Below are positions 5,505-14,910 of a DNA stretch of 64,000 nt, piece after piece (the first letter of the stretch is position 1; every line of letters begins with the position of its first letter). The notes under the pieces are model-generated. The model did no database searches, was not told the origin of the DNA, and saw only the letters and a list, made by a program, of their open reading frames with translations. Source of the stretch: Escherichia coli (GTDB taxonomy: Bacteria; Pseudomonadota; Gammaproteobacteria; Enterobacterales; Enterobacteriaceae); the NCBI RefSeq assembly GCF_036507355.1, contig NZ_AP027877.1; one strand, 5' to 3'. Position numbers and translations under genes: made by a program.

Positions 5505-6260
5505 TTGAGTGCGGGACGCCTGAATAAAAAATCTCTGGGTATCGTGATGTTGTTATCGGTTGGACTGCTTTTGGCGGGCTGTTCGGGTAGCAAATCATCC
5601 GATACAGGAACGTATTCCGGCTCCGTTTACACCGTGAAACGGGGGGATACGCTATATCGTATTTCGCGCACCACGGGAACCAGCGTAAAAGAACTGGCGC
5701 GACTGAACGGCATTTCCCCCCCTTACACTATTGAAGTAGGTCAGAAACTAAAACTGGGTGGGGCGAAAAGTAGCAGTAGTACACGTAAATCAACCGCCAA
5801 ATCAACGACTAAAACCGCATCGGTTACACCGTCATCAGCGGTACCGAAATCTTCCTGGCCGCCAGTAGGGCAACGTTGTTGGTTATGGCCAACGACAGGG
5901 AAAGTTATCATGCCGTATTCGACAGCAGATGGCGGCAATAAAGGGATTGATATCTCAGCTCCACGGGGTACACCTATTTACGCCGCGGGTGCAGGAAAGG
6001 TGGTGTATGTGGGCAACCAGCTGCGTGGCTACGGTAATCTCATCATGATTAAACACAGTGAAGATTACATTACGGCTTACGCCCATAATGACACGATGCT
6101 GGTAAATAATGGGCAAAGCGTGAGGGCTGGGCAAAAAATCGCCACCATGGGGAGCACGGATGCGGCATCTGTTCGCCTGCATTTCCAGATTCGTTACCGT
6201 GCAACGGCAATTGATCCGCTACGTTACTTGCCGCCGCAGGGCAGCAAGCCAAAATGCTGA
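5505..6260 (+). CDS. ygeR: LysM/peptidase M23 lipoprotein YgeR
   Basis: Probable TTG start at 5505 preceded by GAGGA (the track ORF starts at an upstream ATG at 5481); lipobox LLAGC, LysM segment (YTVKRGDTLYRISR) and C-terminal M23 domain; located immediately upstream of glyU. Confidence 0.85.
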   Translation: MSAGRLNKKSLGIVMLLSVGLLLAGCSGSKSSDTGTYSGSVYTVKRGDTLYRISRTTGTSVKELARLNGISPPYTIEVGQKLKLGGAKSSSSTRKSTAKSTTKTASVTPSSAVPKSSWPPVGQRCWLWPTTGKVIMPYSTADGGNKGIDISAPRGTPIYAAGAGKVVYVGNQLRGYGNLIMIKHSEDYITAYAHNDTMLVNNGQSVRAGQKIATMGSTDAASVRLHFQIRYRATAIDPLRYLPPQGSKPKC

Positions 6261-6338: not shown

Positions 6339-6412
6339 GCGGGCGTAGTTCAATGGTAGAACGAGAGCTTCCCAAGCTCTATACGAGGGTTCGATTCCCT
6401 TCGCCCGCTCCA
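6339..6412 (+). tRNA. glyU: tRNA-Gly (anticodon CCC)
   Basis: 74-nt sequence GCGGGCGTAGTTCAATGGTAGAACGAGAGCTTCCCAAGCTCTATACGAGGGTTCGATTCCCTTCGCCCGCTCCA with cloverleaf and CCC anticodon. Confidence 0.97.
6390..6412 (+). repeat. attL core: 3' end of glyU (23 bp), direct repeat of 10585-10607
   Basis: TTCGATTCCCTTCGCCCGCTCCA occurs identically at 6390-6412 and 10585-10607. Confidence 0.85.
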
Positions 6413-6546
6413 TGACCTTTCTTAAAGTACTCCAACCTACTGAATCCTAAGGGATACGGCTTTAAGCCTTCCGCTAGTTTTACTCACTGTAACCAACACT
6501 GTAACTAAATTTGTTGAAATAGTGAGCAGACTTAAGATCTCAGTAC

Positions 6547-8178
6547 ATGCTCAACTCAAAAACCTATCTTTATCAGCGCAATGGCGTCTTTTATATCCGC
6601 CTCAGGATGAAGTCCACAGATCGCCTGACCGTTTCACATCCTTCCCATAGCCGTTATAAAATAGCGTCAGTATCACTACGGACTAAGGATAGACGTACAG
6701 CTATGGCTTACTCACGGCAAATCAAGGCAGCACTTAGGGCAATCCATGCAGACAGACCCAACGCCTCCTATGAGGAAATGAGGGAACACCTGAGGGACAT
6801 CGCAGAGTGGGAGTTGTCTACAGGTCGTTCAGACCTCTTCGAGCCAGATATGAGAGATCTATACCGTGACCAGTATGGGGAAGTGGGAGAGAATCTTGTC
6901 CATGCTCTGGCAAGCGAGCCACTGACTATTGACCAGCATCGCTATATTAATGAGGCTCTTAATGTACTCAAGGCCTGCATGAAGCGCATTGAAGCGGGAG
7001 ATAGCCAGCCACTTATAGATTATATAGATGGATTTGATGCTGCTGCTGGGGCTAATGGCCAAGCCTCTGCAACTCTATCTGTTAGTGCTCCCCAAAAAAC
7101 AAGCATTACTGAAGGCAAACACTGCGTAACCGTTGCTTCTCTCTTTGAGCAGTACGAGCAGGAAAACGCCCAGAACTGGAAGCCAGCAACATTACGAGAA
7201 AACAAAGCTTCTCATGCTGCGTTAATCGAAGTTTTTGATTATCTGGGCCTCAATGCTGACGCCAATGTGTTAGCTCGTGCGGATATGCTTAGGGTTCGGG
7301 ATATCCTCCAGCAATTGCCGAAGAATCGTAAGCAGCGTTTCAAAGATGTTCCGTTGGTTGACCTGCTAGGTCGTGAGGATAAAACCGATTGTCTGGATAT
7401 TGTTACCATCAATAATAAATATCTCATTAAGATGGCGGCTGTTTTCAAGTGGGCCGTGCGTAATGACCTGATTAAAAAGAATATGACAGAAGGGCTAGAG
7501 CTTAAGGTTCCCCAGCGTAAAGCCTCTGAGGCGCGTAATGCTTTCTCTACGGAGCAGGTAGGACAACTACTGGCTGCCGCCCAAGTTTACTCACAGAGAC
7601 CTTCTGGTAAGCCGTATCATTATTATGTTACCGCCTTGGCTGCTATCACTGGGGCGAGACTCAATGAAATAGCCCAACTACAGGTCAAAGACGTCAGGAC
7701 CACTGAGGCGGGAACCGTTTATATTCATATCAATGAAGACGATAGTAGTCTACCCGGTAAGAGCATCAAGAACGCTCATAGTGACCGCTGTGTGCCTCTG
7801 GTCGATGGGGCCTATGGTTTTATATTGGCTGACTTTATGAGGTTGGTTGAGACCCGTAGAGGCGCTGATGGTGATGACGCTATGGTGTTCGATGGTCTTC
7901 GCCTCATGAAGAACGGTTACGGTGAGCAGGTGAGTAAATGGTTTAATCGGACGTTGTTGCCTAAAGTCCTCGCAGACCGTAGCGGCTTAGCGTTTCACTC
8001 GTTTAGACATACAGTTGCGACCCAGTTAAAACAACATGGGGTCGAGTTGGCGTATGCACAGGCGATCATGGGGCATAGTTCAGGGTCTATTACTTACGAC
8101 CGTTATGCTAAAGAGGTTGAGGTTGATAGACTGGTCAATGTGATGGCTGATGTTTATAAGGAGGTTGTGGCCCCTTAA
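6547..8178 (+). CDS. tyrosine-type integrase (543 aa, extended N-terminal region)
   Basis: C-terminal catalytic motifs ARLNEI (Arg), HSFRHTVAT (H-x-x-R), GHSSGSITYDRYAK (Tyr); first gene after the tRNA att core. Confidence 0.85.
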   Translation: MLNSKTYLYQRNGVFYIRLRMKSTDRLTVSHPSHSRYKIASVSLRTKDRRTAMAYSRQIKAALRAIHADRPNASYEEMREHLRDIAEWELSTGRSDLFEPDMRDLYRDQYGEVGENLVHALASEPLTIDQHRYINEALNVLKACMKRIEAGDSQPLIDYIDGFDAAAGANGQASATLSVSAPQKTSITEGKHCVTVASLFEQYEQENAQNWKPATLRENKASHAALIEVFDYLGLNADANVLARADMLRVRDILQQLPKNRKQRFKDVPLVDLLGREDKTDCLDIVTINNKYLIKMAAVFKWAVRNDLIKKNMTEGLELKVPQRKASEARNAFSTEQVGQLLAAAQVYSQRPSGKPYHYYVTALAAITGARLNEIAQLQVKDVRTTEAGTVYIHINEDDSSLPGKSIKNAHSDRCVPLVDGAYGFILADFMRLVETRRGADGDDAMVFDGLRLMKNGYGEQVSKWFNRTLLPKVLADRSGLAFHSFRHTVATQLKQHGVELAYAQAIMGHSSGSITYDRYAKEVEVDRLVNVMADVYKEVVAP

Positions 8179-8179
8179 G

Positions 8180-8234
8180 GATGACCATAGGCGATGACCA
8201 TAGGCGATGACCATAGGCGATGACACTTGCTACT
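8180..8234 (+). repeat. tandem 13-bp iterons (GATGACCATAGGC x3 plus a variant GATGACACTTGCTACT)
   Basis: Three perfect head-to-tail copies starting one base after the integrase stop; the variant unit recurs at about 8391-8410. Confidence 0.8.
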
Positions 8235-8293
8235 ATTCCTATGGTCCCCTTTGTGGTCCTATGTGGTCCTGTGTGACCCTTTGTGTGGTCATG
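8235..8293 (+). repeat. cluster of TGGTCC/TGTGGTC short repeats
   Basis: ATTCCTATGGTCCCCTTTGTGGTCCTATGTGGTCCTGTGTGACCCTTTGTGTGGTCATG: about five degenerate copies of one motif. Confidence 0.7.
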
Positions 8294-8330
8294 TTTTGAC
8301 TCATAGTTTTCACTACTTGTCAAGCATATT

Positions 8331-8353
8331 TAATACGACTCACTATAGGGAGA
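8331..8353 (+). promoter_or_regulatory. bacteriophage T7 RNA polymerase promoter (exact 23-bp class III consensus)
   Basis: TAATACGACTCACTATAGGGAGA read directly, predicted +1 G at 8348; followed by a TCTCTCTCTGTCTCTCTC tract. Confidence 0.85.
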
Positions 8354-8584
8354 AGGGACACAAAAAGTTTTCTCTCTCTGTCTCTCTCTATGATGACACT
8401 TGCTACTACTTCAGGTAGCTTTAACTCTAACCGTAACTTATCGCATCCTTTCAGGGGCGGGATGACCAATTACAGACACCAAGCGTTCTACTTAAAATGA
8501 ATGCTTCCTGTGTGCTCTGGGTCAGTCGATAAGTGAATAGCCTTAGACATCATATTAATTATGGTCTCTAACCCCTACAGGGGC

Positions 8585-8729
8585 TTAACTTTAAGTATTA
8601 ACTTATAGTCTACTTAAAGACACAATTAAAGATTAACTTAAAGTATTAAATTATAGATTAATTAAAGACCAATTAAAGAGTAACTTTAAGTATTAACTTA
8701 TAGTCTACTTAAAGACACAATTAAAGATT
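8585..8729 (+). repeat. AT-rich iteron array with two ~48-bp direct repeats (TTAAAGA/TTAAAGAC units)
   Basis: AACTTTAAGTATTAACTTATAGTCTACTTAAAGACACAATTAAAGATT at about 8587-8634 and 8682-8729; preceded by CCCCTACAGGGG at about 8570. Confidence 0.8.
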
Positions 8730-8920
8730 GACTCTAAGGGAATACCTTAAGAGGTGATGATATTCATAATAATCAATCACCAAACCTATAGGTCTCCTCA
8801 AGGCATTACCCAGAAGCTAACTGTATGGCCCTGTATGGTCCTGTACGCCATTCTTTAGGATGCCATGTAGTTTCGTATGGCCTGATGCCTAGCGTGGCTC
8901 AGAGACCCTCCCAGTAGTAA

Positions 8921-8945
8921 ATCAATACGACTTACTAATAGGAGA
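8921..8945 (+). promoter_or_regulatory. degenerate T7-like promoter (putative)
   Basis: CAATACGACTTACTAATAGGAGACA: 18 of 23 positions match the T7 consensus, same orientation, about 230 bp upstream of the 9158 ORF. Confidence 0.45.
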
Positions 8946-9157
8946 CACACTCCGAACCACTCACCACGTGTCTCTCAAAGTTCCACCTCTCGCGCTTCAC
9001 CATACAGTAGCTCCGCACAGCTACGACACAATCATTCATTCAATCTCAAAGTCATTCTGTTTGCATCCTGTTGTCCTGCTGGTCTCCCTTCGCTTGGGGA
9101 CTTTGAGTGGGCCAGTAGGGGGCGGTTTAGTGTGCATATTTAAAAGGTAACCAAGCA

Positions 9158-9721
9158 ATGAACAATAAACATAAACATGCAGGTCATATTATCACTATTG
9201 AAGGCCACAGCTTTAAGTCTAATGAGTCTGGCATGTGGAATCTTACAGAAATATGGAAAATCCTCGGATTACCTAACAATAAGCTACCCTCTCAGTGGCG
9301 CGGCAAGGTAACAAAGAGGCTCACCGACATGCAAAAAATGCACGTCGAGAAGATTGGTATTGAAAGCATAACCTACGCAGACAAACAGGCTACCCTCAAG
9401 TATGCAGGATGGGTCTCTGAAGATTTCGAGGACATGGTCTATGCAGCCTTTGAGGCTATCCTTGAGATGCCTGAAGTTGCCACGGTCGTTGCTAATAAGA
9501 TGGTCGAACTTGGCTATCACGCTGAAGCTGAGCTATTGGAACGTCATAAGGACGACTATAGAGAAGCTATGCAGACCCTTAAAAAGATTGGTAAACGTGT
9601 TGACGGCAGGAAGCCTGAGCGCATCTACAAGGCCGTACTTAACGGTAATCTGACGAAATTTCAAGGGTTATCCATGATTTCTCGCAGCAGTGTCTGGTAC
9701 GCCCGAACAGTGAATCTATGA
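9158..9721 (+). CDS. hypothetical protein, possible KilA-N-like N-terminal domain
   Basis: 187-aa ORF with AAGGTAA upstream; N-terminal IITIEGHSFKSNESGMWNLTEIWKILG...AGWVSEDFEDMVYAAF is reminiscent of KilA-N/APSES-type domains (tentative, from recall). Confidence 0.5.
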   Translation: MNNKHKHAGHIITIEGHSFKSNESGMWNLTEIWKILGLPNNKLPSQWRGKVTKRLTDMQKMHVEKIGIESITYADKQATLKYAGWVSEDFEDMVYAAFEAILEMPEVATVVANKMVELGYHAEAELLERHKDDYREAMQTLKKIGKRVDGRKPERIYKAVLNGNLTKFQGLSMISRSSVWYARTVNL

Positions 9722-9844
9722 TGGCTATCGATCACGATAGATGCCAGCGATCAATTTCAGGTTACCGATCGAAACAAACGATCAGCACGATGGTTGCAAT
9801 CGGATATCATATTGACACTTGTCTGACATCCTGAAGGTATCAAT

Positions 9845-10318
9845 ATGTTTGGGCTTTTTAAGAAAAAGGCAAAAGCGGAAAGGTGTTATGATGTAACACG
9901 CATTCAATACGAGCTGGTTGTAATGTCATCTAAGCTGATAAAAAAACAGACCGATATGTTCAAAGTAATAAAAGGGGAGCGAGAGGAGGCTTTAGGAGAC
10001 CCTTTATTATCAGCAGGGTATATAACGCCATGGGTCATTGGATATTGCACTGGTCTCCTGGATGCAGTGACTCAGACGGAGGCTAACAGGATGGCATTTA
10101 CATCAGAAATGCTTGGGCTTCTTTTTGCTGCAGTTTTCGGTGATGATAAGTCTCTTGAGGCCATGGGAACTTATATAGCCTGTAACGAAGCCTCCTCACC
10201 AGACCATGGATTTCATGTTACGTATGAGCTTTATATGTCTGGTCTAGCGAAAGCGTTTAATGAGGTATGTGAGGATAAACCTGCGATAGGACTTCTGAAC
10301 TATTTAATGCAGGATTGA
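9845..10318 (+). CDS. hypothetical protein (157 aa)
   Basis: ORF with no recognisable motifs; TTGACA at about 9810 upstream; last ORF before attR. Confidence 0.45.
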   Translation: MFGLFKKKAKAERCYDVTRIQYELVVMSSKLIKKQTDMFKVIKGEREEALGDPLLSAGYITPWVIGYCTGLLDAVTQTEANRMAFTSEMLGLLFAAVFGDDKSLEAMGTYIACNEASSPDHGFHVTYELYMSGLAKAFNEVCEDKPAIGLLNYLMQD

Positions 10319-10584
10319 AAATTTCCCACAAAAATCTCAGTGCCTATCTAACAGTAATAACCCTGCAACATTCCCCCGTATACCTCCAGAAGTTATCCAG
10401 AAGCCGAAGTAGGTATCCTGTCATGTATTTGAATCATCAAAGTTGTTCGTTCTATTCCTCTTTAGGGAATATTACAGCCCTACAGCCTTGACCAGAGATC
10501 ACTTGATGTGTAACCATAACTGTAACCAAAAGGATTCATCATCCTTTAAGAAACAATTGGTTAGTGAGTGATTGTCTTCGATAC

Positions 10585-10607
10585 TTCGATTCCCTTCGCC
10601 CGCTCCA
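10585..10607 (+). repeat. attR of the 4.2-kb element (also proximal att of the next islet)
   Basis: 23-bp copy of the glyU 3' end; flanking sequence diverges from the tRNA. Confidence 0.85.
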
Positions 10608-10771
10608 AACTCAAGTCTCCTGAAGTCTACCAAACTCAATTTTTCCTTGATAAATCAGCAGTTATAGCTTTCTATTAGTCTATTGAACTCAATTGTACTC
10701 CCCCAGGGTCAAGCTCAATGTGGGGGTATGGATGGGGGTATAATTGTACCCCCTGCTGAGAGGTACCCCCA

Positions 10772-11998
10772 ATGAAGCTGACTGCTCGTCAGGTTGAAAC
10801 TGCGAAACCCAAAGAGAAGCCCTACAAACTGGCCGATGGTGGTGGGCTTTACCTGCTGGTTAATCCCAACGGTAAAAGATACTGGCGTCTCAAATACCGT
10901 TCGTTAGGTAAAGAGAAGCTGCTCGCTATTGGCGTTTATCCCGATGTTTCTTTAGCTGAGGCCCGAAGTAAGCGTGAGGATGCTAAAAGAACATTAGCGG
11001 CTGGCAACGATCCCTCTCTTGAACGAAAAATTGAGAAACTTAGTCGTCAACAAGACGCTGAAAACTCGTTTGAGGCTATCACACGGGAGTGGTATCAGCG
11101 TCGCTATGACCGCTGGTCTGTCTCCTACCGCGAAGAAATGCTGAGAACCTTTGAGAAAGATGTATTTCCTTATATCGGTCACAGGCCAATCAAAGATATC
11201 AAGCCGATGGAGTTGCTTGCAGTTCTTTCAAAGATAGAAGCACGAGGGGCAACAGAGAAAGTCCGCAAGGTTCGTCAGCGTTGTGGAGAGGTCTGGAAGT
11301 ATGCCGTTGTGACTGGGAGGGCCGAGTACAATCCAGCACCTGATCTAGCCAGCGCCGTGAGTCCTCATGAGAAAGAGCACTATGCTTTTTTAACCCAGGA
11401 TGAATTGCCTGAGTTTCTTCGGACTCTGAACGCCTATGCCGGTAGTGTGCTTGTTAAGATTGCGATGCAATTGCTCATTTTAACAGGAGTAAGGCCAGGG
11501 GAGTTGAGGCAAGCGGAGTGGCAGGAGTTTGATTTTGAGAAAAAGGTTTGGAATGTACCAGCGGAACGTATGAAAATGCGCCGCCCTCATCTTGTTCCAT
11601 TATCAAGCCAGGCAATTGACCTGCTTAATCAACTTAAACCCATAACGGGAGCAGGAGCGTTATTATTCCCAGGACGTAATAATCCTAAGAAACCGATGAG
11701 CGATATGGCATTGACTGTGTTGGTCAGGCGTATCGGCTATGCCGGGCGCGTTACAGGGCATGGATTCCGCCACACGATGAGTACCATTTTGCATGAGCAG
11801 GGATTCAACTCGGCCTGGATTGAGTTACAGCTGGCTCACGTCGATAAGAACTCAATTCGTGGGACGTATAACCATGCTCAATATTTGGAAGGTCGGCGGG
11901 AGATGATGCAGTGGTATGGAGATTTCATCGGTCAAGCAGGCAAATCCGGATCATCGCTAGCTTATGCAGCTATTAGCTTGACTGCTGAATTAGAGTGA
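10772..11998 (+). CDS. P4-type tyrosine integrase
   Basis: 408-aa ORF; N-terminus MKLTARQVETAKPKEKPYKLADGGGLYLLVNPNGKRYWRLKY typical of P4-family integrases; HGFRHT and Y-containing C-terminal box; sits 165 bp after the tRNA-derived repeat. Confidence 0.9.
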   Translation: MKLTARQVETAKPKEKPYKLADGGGLYLLVNPNGKRYWRLKYRSLGKEKLLAIGVYPDVSLAEARSKREDAKRTLAAGNDPSLERKIEKLSRQQDAENSFEAITREWYQRRYDRWSVSYREEMLRTFEKDVFPYIGHRPIKDIKPMELLAVLSKIEARGATEKVRKVRQRCGEVWKYAVVTGRAEYNPAPDLASAVSPHEKEHYAFLTQDELPEFLRTLNAYAGSVLVKIAMQLLILTGVRPGELRQAEWQEFDFEKKVWNVPAERMKMRRPHLVPLSSQAIDLLNQLKPITGAGALLFPGRNNPKKPMSDMALTVLVRRIGYAGRVTGHGFRHTMSTILHEQGFNSAWIELQLAHVDKNSIRGTYNHAQYLEGRREMMQWYGDFIGQAGKSGSSLAYAAISLTAELE

Positions 11999-13206: not shown

Positions 13207-14910
13207 TTACTTTTTACTTCCAAATTGAATGCCGAGAAGTTTATTCTCTGCTTTATCGCCACGTAGAGTAAGAACAATTTTTGATTTCAGTTCTAACATT
13301 TCGATTTCAGATAAAGTTGTTTCCATAGCATTAAAGTTTTCAGTGTTTAAAGATGCTATATATTGCTTTCCGCTTCGTTTTAATGACTGATTGACAAATG
13401 AGAACCATCTTGCGCGAACACCTGGATCTATATCAGCAAAAAGACGGTTATCATGCCATAGCATATCCATGGCATGGTTTTCACCACATGTAAATACTAA
13501 CCAGTCAAAGCATAATATCCTAGCATCATTGATCCCATCCGAATCATCACCCTCGATTTGGATGCTTAGATCATAACGAATTTTGTTGTCACCAGTATTA
13601 ACATCCAAAACTATTCCTGCTGGTACCCTTGGGTACATTATTTCTGCGAGCTCAGCAAAAATTTTATCGTATTCTGAAAGAGGATTTGTAGAAGCATAGT
13701 TTACCGCTAATCTGTCTTGTTCAACTTTTCGTTCTCTTAGATTTTGAGCTTTCTGTTGAAGGTTAATAGAAAAATTTAAATAATCATGTAACCTTTCTTT
13801 TTCTTCTTTAAATTCAGCTAGTTGTCTAGCTATGACTGCGTATTCATCAAATGCTTTCTTGCCTTGCAGGGATTCCAAATATGAATCACGTAATGCTGAA
13901 ATATCCTTAATGTCAATTTTAAGAGATTCAATTTCTAACAAAAGTTTTACTTTATCATTTTCAAGTCTTTTCTTTCTGTTAAAAGATAATGATTTGTGAA
14001 AATTTTCAACTGACTCAAAATGGGCCAATGTTTCTGGCTTGAAAATCTCTTGTAAGCCATTGTACAGTTCAAGAAGCTCTTCTCTTGAAATGTCAGGGTG
14101 TTCTAATAAAGTTTTTTCTATATTATTTACTTTAAATTCAGCTATATTTTTGTTTTTTTCAACTTCTCGTAATTTTATAGTTAAACTGTTTGTTTCATTC
14201 TCAATAGCTCTGTATTGCTCGTGAACTTGAAATGCATTCAGTTCATCCTGCAGTCTTGGGATCTCTCTTTCTAGCCACTCATAGCGTACTTTAGGTTGAG
14301 AGCCTGCTCTAAACATGTCTTTTAGAATATCATCGTCTTGCCAATTTTTTAGCGATTGACTTACTTTATCCAGCTCTTGCTTATTATTTCTTTTAGATAA
14401 TATTAAATTATGATCTATACCGAGAAGAAATGCGGTACGAAGCAATGCTTCAAAGTCTTGCTCCTTTTTTGTCCTAGTTGGACTGATGCAGTCATCTCTG
14501 GTATATCGCGAAAAACGCTTAAATAAAGATCTGAATGATAAATACGGAATGTTATTCTCAAGATTAAATATTCCTATTTTATCTAATAAATCTTTAAATG
14601 CTTTTAAAGATATTGTTTTGTCATTTAATAATAATTTTTTTCCATTGCCCGTTCTAGATATTAAGTACTCAACTCCATTATGAGAAAAAAGTAAAGAGAA
14701 CCACCAATCTGGAACTGCTGAAGTTAATTTTTTATCAGCATTAGCTCCTAAACAATGTTGAATGAGACCGAGAATAAGTGTCTTACCGACTCCGTTACTA
14801 CTGCCTTCTTTTTCTTTAGAGCTATCACCAATGATCAACGTTAGTCCTGTATCATTGAAATGCACTGGATGAAAAGTTGGCTGATCGCAAGTTAAGCGAA
14901 TTAACTTCAT
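13207..14910 (-). CDS. SMC/ABC-type P-loop ATPase with long coiled-coil region (putative anti-phage ATPase)
   Basis: 567-aa ORF; Walker A GSSNGVGKT near the N-terminus; long K/E-rich heptad-like middle; start codon abuts the stop of the upstream 101-aa gene. Confidence 0.65.
   Translation of the reverse strand: MKLIRLTCDQPTFHPVHFNDTGLTLIIGDSSKEKEGSSNGVGKTLILGLIQHCLGANADKKLTSAVPDWWFSLLFSHNGVEYLISRTGNGKKLLLNDKTISLKAFKDLLDKIGIFNLENNIPYLSFRSLFKRFSRYTRDDCISPTRTKKEQDFEALLRTAFLLGIDHNLILSKRNNKQELDKVSQSLKNWQDDDILKDMFRAGSQPKVRYEWLEREIPRLQDELNAFQVHEQYRAIENETNSLTIKLREVEKNKNIAEFKVNNIEKTLLEHPDISREELLELYNGLQEIFKPETLAHFESVENFHKSLSFNRKKRLENDKVKLLLEIESLKIDIKDISALRDSYLESLQGKKAFDEYAVIARQLAEFKEEKERLHDYLNFSINLQQKAQNLRERKVEQDRLAVNYASTNPLSEYDKIFAELAEIMYPRVPAGIVLDVNTGDNKIRYDLSIQIEGDDSDGINDARILCFDWLVFTCGENHAMDMLWHDNRLFADIDPGVRARWFSFVNQSLKRSGKQYIASLNTENFNAMETTLSEIEMLELKSKIVLTLRGDKAENKLLGIQFGSKK

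Follow-up and report, generated by a model that had tools for sequence, protein, structure and literature searches.

A second, degenerate T7-class promoter in a two-tier phage-promoter island at tRNA-Gly(CCC) of Escherichia coli

Layout of the island and its non-coding stretch

The stretch of DNA analysed here (64 kb, hereafter called the window) belongs to the E. coli chromosome and harbours a 4,195-bp island (positions 6413-10607) next to a tRNA-Gly(CCC) gene. Both T7-type promoters discussed in this work, P1 and P2, are located in this island (Table 1). The integrase gene is separated from the first cargo ORF by a non-coding stretch of 979 nucleotides (8179-9157), which comprises, in this order, short tandem repeats, P1, a structured element, AT-rich repeats, P2 and a leader with a hairpin. 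The short tandem repeats directly follow the integrase stop codon and contain TGGTC pentamers. Of note, P1 is flanked by an exact 17-nucleotide direct repeat, GATGACACTTGCTACTA, found at positions 8219-8235 and 8392-8408 (173 nucleotides apart), consistent with P1 sitting in a duplicable unit.

Table 1. Features of the island in the window and of sister islands mentioned in the text
Feature	Position	Strand	Evidence
tRNA-Gly(CCC)	6339-6412	+	ARAGORN, Rfam
attL core, left copy of the 23-bp direct repeat (last 23 nt of the tRNA gene)	6390-6412	+	sequence
Tyrosine integrase, 543 aa	6547-8178	+	Pfam PF00589 (E 2e-18), phrog_1
Short tandem repeats: GATGACCATAGGC x3 (8180-8224) and TGTGGTCCT-type x4 (8239-8294)	8180-8294	+	repeat search
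P1, tier-1 promoter, perfect 23-nt T7 class III consensus, +1 = G8348	8331-8353	+	0 mismatches, 39.2 bits
Conserved structured element, closing helix ACTTATCG/CGATAAGT and inner hairpins	8436-8534	+	RNAalifold
Array of three ~48-nt AT-rich TTAAAG-type repeats, 22% GC	8586-8740	+	repeat search
P2, tier-2 promoter, T7-class, -17C/-7T/-2A/-1T/+1A, predicted +1 = A8940	8923-8945	+	matrix score
Predicted 5'-terminal stem-loop of a P2-started transcript, GGAGACAC / GUGUCUCU	8941-8975	+	RNAfold
Long irregular leader hairpin	9062-9136	+	RNAalifold
First cargo ORF, 187 aa (ORF187), weakly KilA-N-like/anti-repressor-like	9158-9721	+	Pfam, PHROGs
Second cargo ORF, 157 aa (ORF157)	9845-10318	+	ORF
attR core, right copy of the 23-bp direct repeat, identical to the left	10585-10607	+	sequence
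Promoters of the island shared by K. pneumoniae and E. coli	L004 3796-3912, 4351-4373; L097 7038-7154, 7592-7614		promoters for phages of two host genera
RAZR/PD-T7-4 gene between integrase gene and promoter array	L004 3155-3787; also in L087, L088, L113 and L114		

The structured element is located downstream of P1 and ahead of the AT-rich repeats. RNAalifold analyses of 12 variants predicted 30 base pairs, 4 of which show compensatory changes, and its 23-mer CGCATCCTTTCAGGGGCGGGATG is present without mismatch in 22 metagenome contigs. In K11-type islands (see below), the closing helix becomes ACTCATCG/CGATGAGT, and the inner hairpin has the same shape with another sequence. A search of Rfam yielded no family match for this element, which is probably an RNA made from P1; the tRNA is the only Rfam family in the island.

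The leader hairpin ends approximately 10 nucleotides ahead of the ribosome-binding site of ORF187, and an alignment of 11 variants supports 27 pairs, including 2 with compensatory changes (RNAalifold). It is kept in T7-, K11/KP32- and K1F-type islands, whichever cargo gene comes next, and BLASTP detected no homology between the first cargo genes of the various island types. As a conserved hairpin thus precedes unrelated cargo, this region appears to serve as an expression platform in front of exchangeable cargo, similar to defence hotspots. The hairpin might serve in RNA processing or in the control of translation.

The cargo proteins gave few clues to their functions. ORF187 has a KilA-N match in Pfam at E 9.5e-4, below the curated cut-off, and a match to phrog_129 (E 8e-10), and tblastn searches of phage genomes returned distant matches only, to Ant-like genes of Vibrio phages. 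No match was found for ORF157 in Pfam, PHROGs, PADLOC, NCBIfam, a PDB sequence search or tblastn searches of phage genomes, and copies 82-96% identical to it are present in some sister islands. Altogether, the same searches thus yielded a weak KilA-N/Ant-like signal for the first cargo protein and nothing for the second.

We found no terminator-like site between P1 or P2 and the two ORFs, and therefore both promoters could drive them. Matches to host-type promoters are fewer than in shuffled sequences, with no sigma-70 promoter and no T7 class II pause signal (ATCTGTT) near P2 and no convincing host promoter ahead of the cargo genes.

A second island is present in tandem at the same att repeat, from position 10608 to approximately 16200, with a P4-like integrase gene (10772-11998) and low-GC cargo. 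It encodes a 567-residue protein (13207-14910, minus strand) with a match to the candidate defence family PDC-M68B (E 8e-73) and a weak one to LmuB.

The P2 site and its predicted strength

An earlier note on this DNA had placed a second, degenerate T7-like promoter at positions 8921-8945, 230 bp upstream of the first cargo ORF. The corresponding 25-nucleotide string, CAATACGACTTACTAATAGGAGACA, occurs once in the window, on the plus strand, and its actual position is two nucleotides further right, at 8923-8947. When aligned to the T7 consensus, its -17 position falls at 8923 and its +1 position at A8940. The distance was about right, as 235 nucleotides separate the start of the site from the ATG of ORF187 (9158), or 218 when counted from +1.

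The 17 annotated promoters of T7 (V01146.1), which themselves score 26.0-39.2 bits, served to construct a position weight matrix. P2 reaches 24.7 bits, below the native range, and ranks second among the 128,000 positions of the window; the third-best site scores 9.2 bits, and the best score obtained in 30 shuffles is 22.1 bits. The exact matrix p-value of P2, 3.2e-9 per position, corresponds to 4e-4 sites expected per window, which rules out a chance resemblance, and the expectation falls to 3e-6 for a score of this level within 1 kb downstream of the consensus copy, P1. A relaxed T7-group core motif similarly returned only two sites in the 64 kb, P1 and P2, which share the island and the strand, P2 lying 592 nucleotides downstream of P1. 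On these sequence criteria, P2 is a genuine derivative of a T7-class promoter.

P2 deviates from the consensus at five positions. Four of these changes occur in native T7 promoters, namely -17C (phi1.1A, phi4c and phi4.7), -2A (phi1.5, phi1.6, phi3.8, phi4c and phi4.3), -1T (phi2.5) and +1A (phiOL and phi2.5). The fifth, -7 C>T, is found in none of the 17. Within the binding region (-17 to -5), P2 agrees with the consensus from -16 to -8, as do the native class II or replication promoters phi1.1A, phi2.5 and phiOL, and the match resumes from -6 to -3. The melting region (-4 to -1) reads TAAT and is followed by a purine start, A, and then GGAGA, comparable to phiOL and phi2.5; the former shares the AGGAGA start with P2, and the latter combines -1T and +1A as P2 does. 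What sets P2 apart from native T7 promoters is thus the T at -7, together with its location on a bacterial chromosome rather than in a phage. The statement that the site keeps the -17 to -8 recognition region therefore stands for -16 to -8, position -17 being a non-consensus C, and the divergence described around the initiation site is real, but the key change at -7 had been overlooked. Position -7 is part of the region read by the specificity loop of the polymerase, which contacts G-11, A-10, C-9, T-8 and C-7, and the P2 base at this position is not the one contacted.

Published data obtained in vitro with T7 RNA polymerase indicate how severe this change is. Komura et al. (2018, PMC5937735) reported that CTC at -9 to -7 is kept in >98% of the promoters with >1% activity. 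In their S2 File, the wild-type promoter has a value of 169 (100%), the +1A variant 68 (40%), the -7T variant 0.907 (0.54%) and the -7T variant with -2A 0.386 (0.23%), a data set that covers these variants and not the exact five-change sequence of P2. Because of its -7T, P2 is predicted to have, with T7 RNA polymerase, about 1% or less of the activity of the consensus, P1 included. The base at -7 alone probably makes the difference between an active promoter and one that is almost silent. In this allele, P2 would be a minor start site at best and is possibly vestigial; the -7T may even abolish its activity altogether, making it a relic. The proposal of a strong and a weak tier in the earlier note fits these figures, but the gap appears more extreme than it assumed.

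P2 is identical in all 11 window-type sequences examined. More broadly, the surrounding block (8877-9044) has no substitutions in eight window-type islands, in which 4.2% of the integrase columns and 10% of the ORF187 columns are variable. The sole variation near P2 is the copy number of a 10-nucleotide unit, AATCAATACG (8913-8932), which corresponds to P2 positions -20 to -11 and is found in one to four tandem copies among E. coli genomes (L143-L145), the complete promoter being formed by the last copy only. Divergence among window-type islands is block-wise, in a mosaic manner, rather than made of scattered substitutions. As the whole block is invariant, selection on P2 is not inferable from its conservation: constraint on the site is inseparable from mosaic inheritance of the block.

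These data bear on the strong-and-weak idea of the earlier note in its functional form, in which P2 would be a deliberately tuned, weak class II-like promoter that works once free polymerase is plentiful. The cargo would then have a transcript of its own, initiated with A and protected by a 5' hairpin. Its -17C, -2A, -1T and +1A are indeed native class II features, the predicted transcript has a stem-loop from +2, similar to the phi10 leader of T7, and the tier-2 copies of K1F-type islands are likewise weakened around the start site. The lack of substitutions around P2 would also agree with tuning, but mosaic recombination can account for it. The stem-loop is suggestive only, with a predicted energy of -10.4 kcal/mol that is not significant (RNAfold, z = -1.7; 12 of 200 shuffles equal or better). 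The published effects of -7T, alone or with -2A, argue against a functional tuning, and any output of P2 would be swamped by that of the consensus P1 upstream, with no terminator in between. We therefore regard a tuned promoter as unlikely, and the reading that we prefer, developed below, treats P2 as an attenuated second tier.

A family of islands with two promoter tiers

Related islands are found at the same tRNA gene in 350-407 of 5,426 complete E. coli genomes. The integrase gene is the core of this family: the integrase of the window island is 78-99% identical to those of its sister islands, and its relatives are distributed over more than 10 genera of Enterobacterales; a scan based on an integrase alignment retrieved them from Klebsiella, Citrobacter, Enterobacter, Buttiauxella, Shimwellia, Pectobacterium, Lonsdalea, Rouxiella, Edaphovirga and Serratia. 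We call these elements two-tier phage-promoter islands at tRNA-Gly(CCC), a family defined in this analysis, whose members are 4.2-6.6 kb long. The window island has the integrase of 530-545 residues encoded beside tRNA-Gly(CCC) and the 23-bp direct repeat, followed by P1 (from 8331), P2 (from 8923), the leader hairpin (9062-9136) and the cargo.

Promoter tiers 500-730 nucleotides apart, downstream of a homologous integrase gene, are present in islands of E. coli, Klebsiella, Citrobacter, Enterobacter, Buttiauxella, Shimwellia and Lonsdalea. A second tier, 500-730 nucleotides downstream of the first, is present in 19 of 38 distinct architectures, or in 21 when the degenerate K1F-type copies are counted, and in 14 of the 19 the promoter class of tier 2 is also present in tier 1. 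Moreover, loci L004 and L122 differ by an in-place swap of the tier-2 promoter (KP32-type and T7-type, respectively) with a homologous downstream flank. These tier counts and the swap indicate that the position of P2 is one in which promoters recur, with a specificity that follows that of tier 1. Tier 1 stands alone in about half of the related architectures, and tier 2 is therefore dispensable; in some of these islands, a hairpin followed by a T-run is found at the place of tier 2. The tiered promoters that the earlier note proposed to drive the 187- and 157-residue ORFs thus correspond to a real and recurrent architecture, but one in which P2 itself is predicted to be nearly inactive.

The identities of the promoters are informative. 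Several islands carry ACTAAACTATCACTATAGGGAGA, which is the consensus of Kayfunavirus (K1F-like) phages, found at 8-10 places per phage genome, or AATTAGGTAGCACTATAGGGAGA, the consensus of KP32-like Przondovirus phages, present at 12 places per genome. Others have AATTAGGGCACACTATAGGGAGA, which we take to be the K11 promoter. T3-like (…ACCCTCACTATAGGG…) and other promoter variants are present in Citrobacter, Buttiauxella and Shimwellia islands, and sister islands combine T7 with K11 and KP32 promoters, or T3-like with K1F promoters. One island is common to K. pneumoniae ATCC 13883 and E. coli, with 93.5% identity over 7 kb; its tier 1 consists of K11-like, T7 and K11 promoters in tandem, and its tier 2 of the KP32 consensus. 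The consensus T7 promoter of tier 1 is present in one to three tandem copies in sister islands, and the promoter cassette appears to expand. Tandem T7 consensus copies, two or three in number and ~120 nucleotides apart, are found in L089 (5588-5851), L093 (7652-7915) and L003 (6228-6368).

In many sister islands, the gene for RAZR/PD-T7-4 directly follows that for the integrase; in L004, the gene between the integrase gene and the promoters matches PD-T7-4 with a PADLOC E-value of 8e-99. In the window island, this zinc-finger/HEPN protein (DUF4145) is absent, with no PD-T7-4 match among the three island proteins. According to PMC13017515, RAZR is the current name of PD-T7-4, an abortive-infection HEPN RNase that acts against T3 and T7 and is activated by the portal proteins of these phages, and the preprint by Vassallo et al. 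(2022, 10.1101/2022.05.12.491691) states that PD-T7-4 frequently overlaps an integrase gene. A term search of both sources returned no mention of downstream phage-promoter arrays. Thus, the window island shares its integrase family, its tRNA-Gly(CCC) site and its non-coding platform with the integrase-linked RAZR/PD-T7-4 elements, and it differs from them by the lack of the RAZR gene.

Interpretation of P2 and of the island

The resemblance of the non-coding stretch to T7 origins raises the possibility that P2 is part of a T7-type replication and packaging module, as an analogue of phiOL, in which case the island would amount to a naturally occurring 'T7 phagemid' or mini-satellite. P1 and the AT-rich region would form an origin fired by the phage polymerase, with P2 as a weak second origin promoter, and amplification of the 4.2-kb unit would yield concatemers of ~9 copies for packaging. 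T7 itself pairs a consensus promoter at its right end, phiOR, with a weak, A-starting one at its left end, phiOL. The best local alignments of the AT-rich repeats in the whole T7 genome are with its two AT-rich origin regions, at 5950-6017 (primary origin, score 50) and 408-499 (phiOL origin, score 49), compared with a maximum of 33 in shuffles, but two AT-rich sequences readily align even without homology. T7 primase pentamers (GGGTC, TGGTC and GTGTC) are enriched in the 979 non-coding nucleotides, with 24 occurrences for ~4 expected (9 on the plus and 15 on the minus strand, for ~2 per strand in shuffles), an excess that stems in part from the TGTGGTCCT and GACAC repeats; no replication gene was found in the island. 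Like satellites, the window island has an integrase, att sites and a small size, in keeping with the range of its family, and the 93.5% identity between Klebsiella and E. coli islands would also suit a mobile unit of this kind. Finally, T7 replicates, packages and transduces plasmids that bear its origin, pac site and terminal repeat (PMC13236587).

Other observations argue against such a module. P2 is located downstream of the AT-rich region and not upstream, and no obvious AT-rich region was seen on reading the K1F-type locus L088 (a single locus). Local alignments of the non-coding segments with the concatemer junction and terminal repeat of T7 remained within the range of shuffles, except for the AT-rich repeats. 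A TC-rich run after P1 and a hairpin at 8572-8584 look alike to the T7 junction, terminal repeat or pac region by eye, and this mimicry was rejected as the alignments were negative. In BLAST searches of 50,697 phage records, the non-coding DNA of T7-, K1F- and K11/KP32-type islands matched promoters only. All 22 metagenome contigs with the island show the integrated arrangement, and no excised attP junction was found in IMG/VR, although absence from such a collection is weak evidence. Thus, signs of packaging, be they terminal repeat or junction similarity, attP or concatemeric forms, were not detected in these alignments and collections, the latter again a weak type of evidence.

PICMI elements harbour AlpA-, Fis- and primase-type regulatory or replication genes beside the integrase gene; searches of Pfam and PHROGs with the three island proteins identified none of these, only the integrase and the weak KilA-N signal. 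PICMI (PMC10803314) and the marine VEIMEs (PMC9618062) resemble the island in their very small size (4-7 kb), their integrase, their few genes and their link with virulent phages. They are packaged as concatemers, whereas the island was seen in integrated form only, with no sign of excision or concatemers in metagenome contigs or IMG/VR, and sensing through phage-polymerase promoters has not been described for them. The engineered T7 phagemids of Chung and Hinkle (1990), as used in PMC13236587, are small units that combine a T7 promoter with an AT-rich origin-like region, as the island does, but they need a pac site and a terminal repeat, for which no counterpart was detected in the island. 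Similarly, the PLE of Vibrio cholerae (PMC7145576) is a chromosomal island that answers one virulent phage and uses the phage replication machinery; unlike the window island, it is ~18 kb long, has its own replication initiator, is triggered by phage proteins rather than through phage-polymerase promoters and has proven transduction. Altogether, a role of P2 as an origin promoter in a packaged unit appears improbable.

It is even less probable that P2 serves another phage polymerase, that of a T7 relative that prefers T at -7 (...GACTTACTA...), which was the second idea of the earlier note. The sister islands with mixed promoter classes show that tuning to individual phages exists in the family. 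However, the -12 to -8 segment of P2 (CGACT) is T7-type and not T3-type, and every T7-group consensus seen in this analysis has a C at -7. Two scans of IMG/VR for -7T promoter versions, ATACGACTTACTAAT and AATACGACTTACTAWWRGR, returned single, unrelated hits only, and BLAST searches with P2 against the 50,697 INPHARED phage records returned only class II promoters with C at -7 (84-86% identity). Thus, no phage that repeatedly uses a -7T promoter as its own consensus was identified in IMG/VR or INPHARED. The idea of promoters specific to different helper polymerases is consequently not supported for P2, but it holds in the sister islands, and the word 'helper' presumes a satellite, which the island may or may not be. 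Lastly, cloning vectors commonly carry T7 promoters, but 51 of 5,426 complete E. coli genomes have the P2 segment at this very chromosomal position, and metagenome contigs of independent origin contain it too; a chance resemblance or an assembly or vector artefact is therefore a negligible explanation.

We favour, with moderate confidence, the view that P2 is an attenuated tier-2 promoter in a control region responsive to phage polymerases, with cargo expression mainly through read-through from P1. Given the phage-polymerase promoters and the lack of a convincing host promoter, the cargo is expected to be silent before infection, until an infecting T7-type phage makes its own polymerase. This polymerase would start at P1 (8348), transcribe the structured element and the AT-rich region reminiscent of T7 origins, and read on through P2 and the leader hairpin into the 187- and 157-residue ORFs. 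P2 would mark the conserved second promoter position, nearest to the cargo, nearly silent because of its -7 C>T change. T7-group phages shut down host transcription, and a host element that acts after infection would therefore gain from using the phage's own promoter. The sister islands with RAZR, the platform with exchangeable cargo and the candidate defence gene of the tandem island lead us to favour a 'tripwire', in which the cargo would be transcribed by the polymerase of the invading phage itself. The island may be a defence element, a satellite or both.

A broader and more tentative proposal, which we consider possible but rather doubtful, is that an undescribed Enterobacterales family of integrative elements of 4-6.6 kb uses T7-group promoters as infection sensors, as natural 'T7 phagemids'. 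Phage polymerases would both transcribe and amplify the island, either as a means of stopping the phage or for transport in its capsids. The sensors would be authentic T7, K11, KP32, K1F and T3-like promoters, often in multi-genus arrays and in two tiers, combined with the origin-like AT-rich region and the structured RNA, and P2 would be the phiOL-like second promoter.

Beyond P2, the wider finding is that of chromosomal islands that carry authentic promoters of several virulent phage genera. We found no description of such promoter arrays, of T7 satellites or of T7-promoter islands in the literature searched, which covered a minority of subscription journals. Islands with consensus T7, K11, KP32 or K1F promoters would represent a very simple infection sensor, and the phage genus targeted by each of them would be readable from its promoter sequence alone. 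Their link with RAZR/PD-T7-4 suggests that the unannotated cargo constitutes a pool of candidate anti-T7 or phage-hijacking genes. Approximately 6-7% of complete E. coli genomes have such an island, which would be of practical relevance to T7 expression strains, T7 phagemids and T7-like therapeutic phages.
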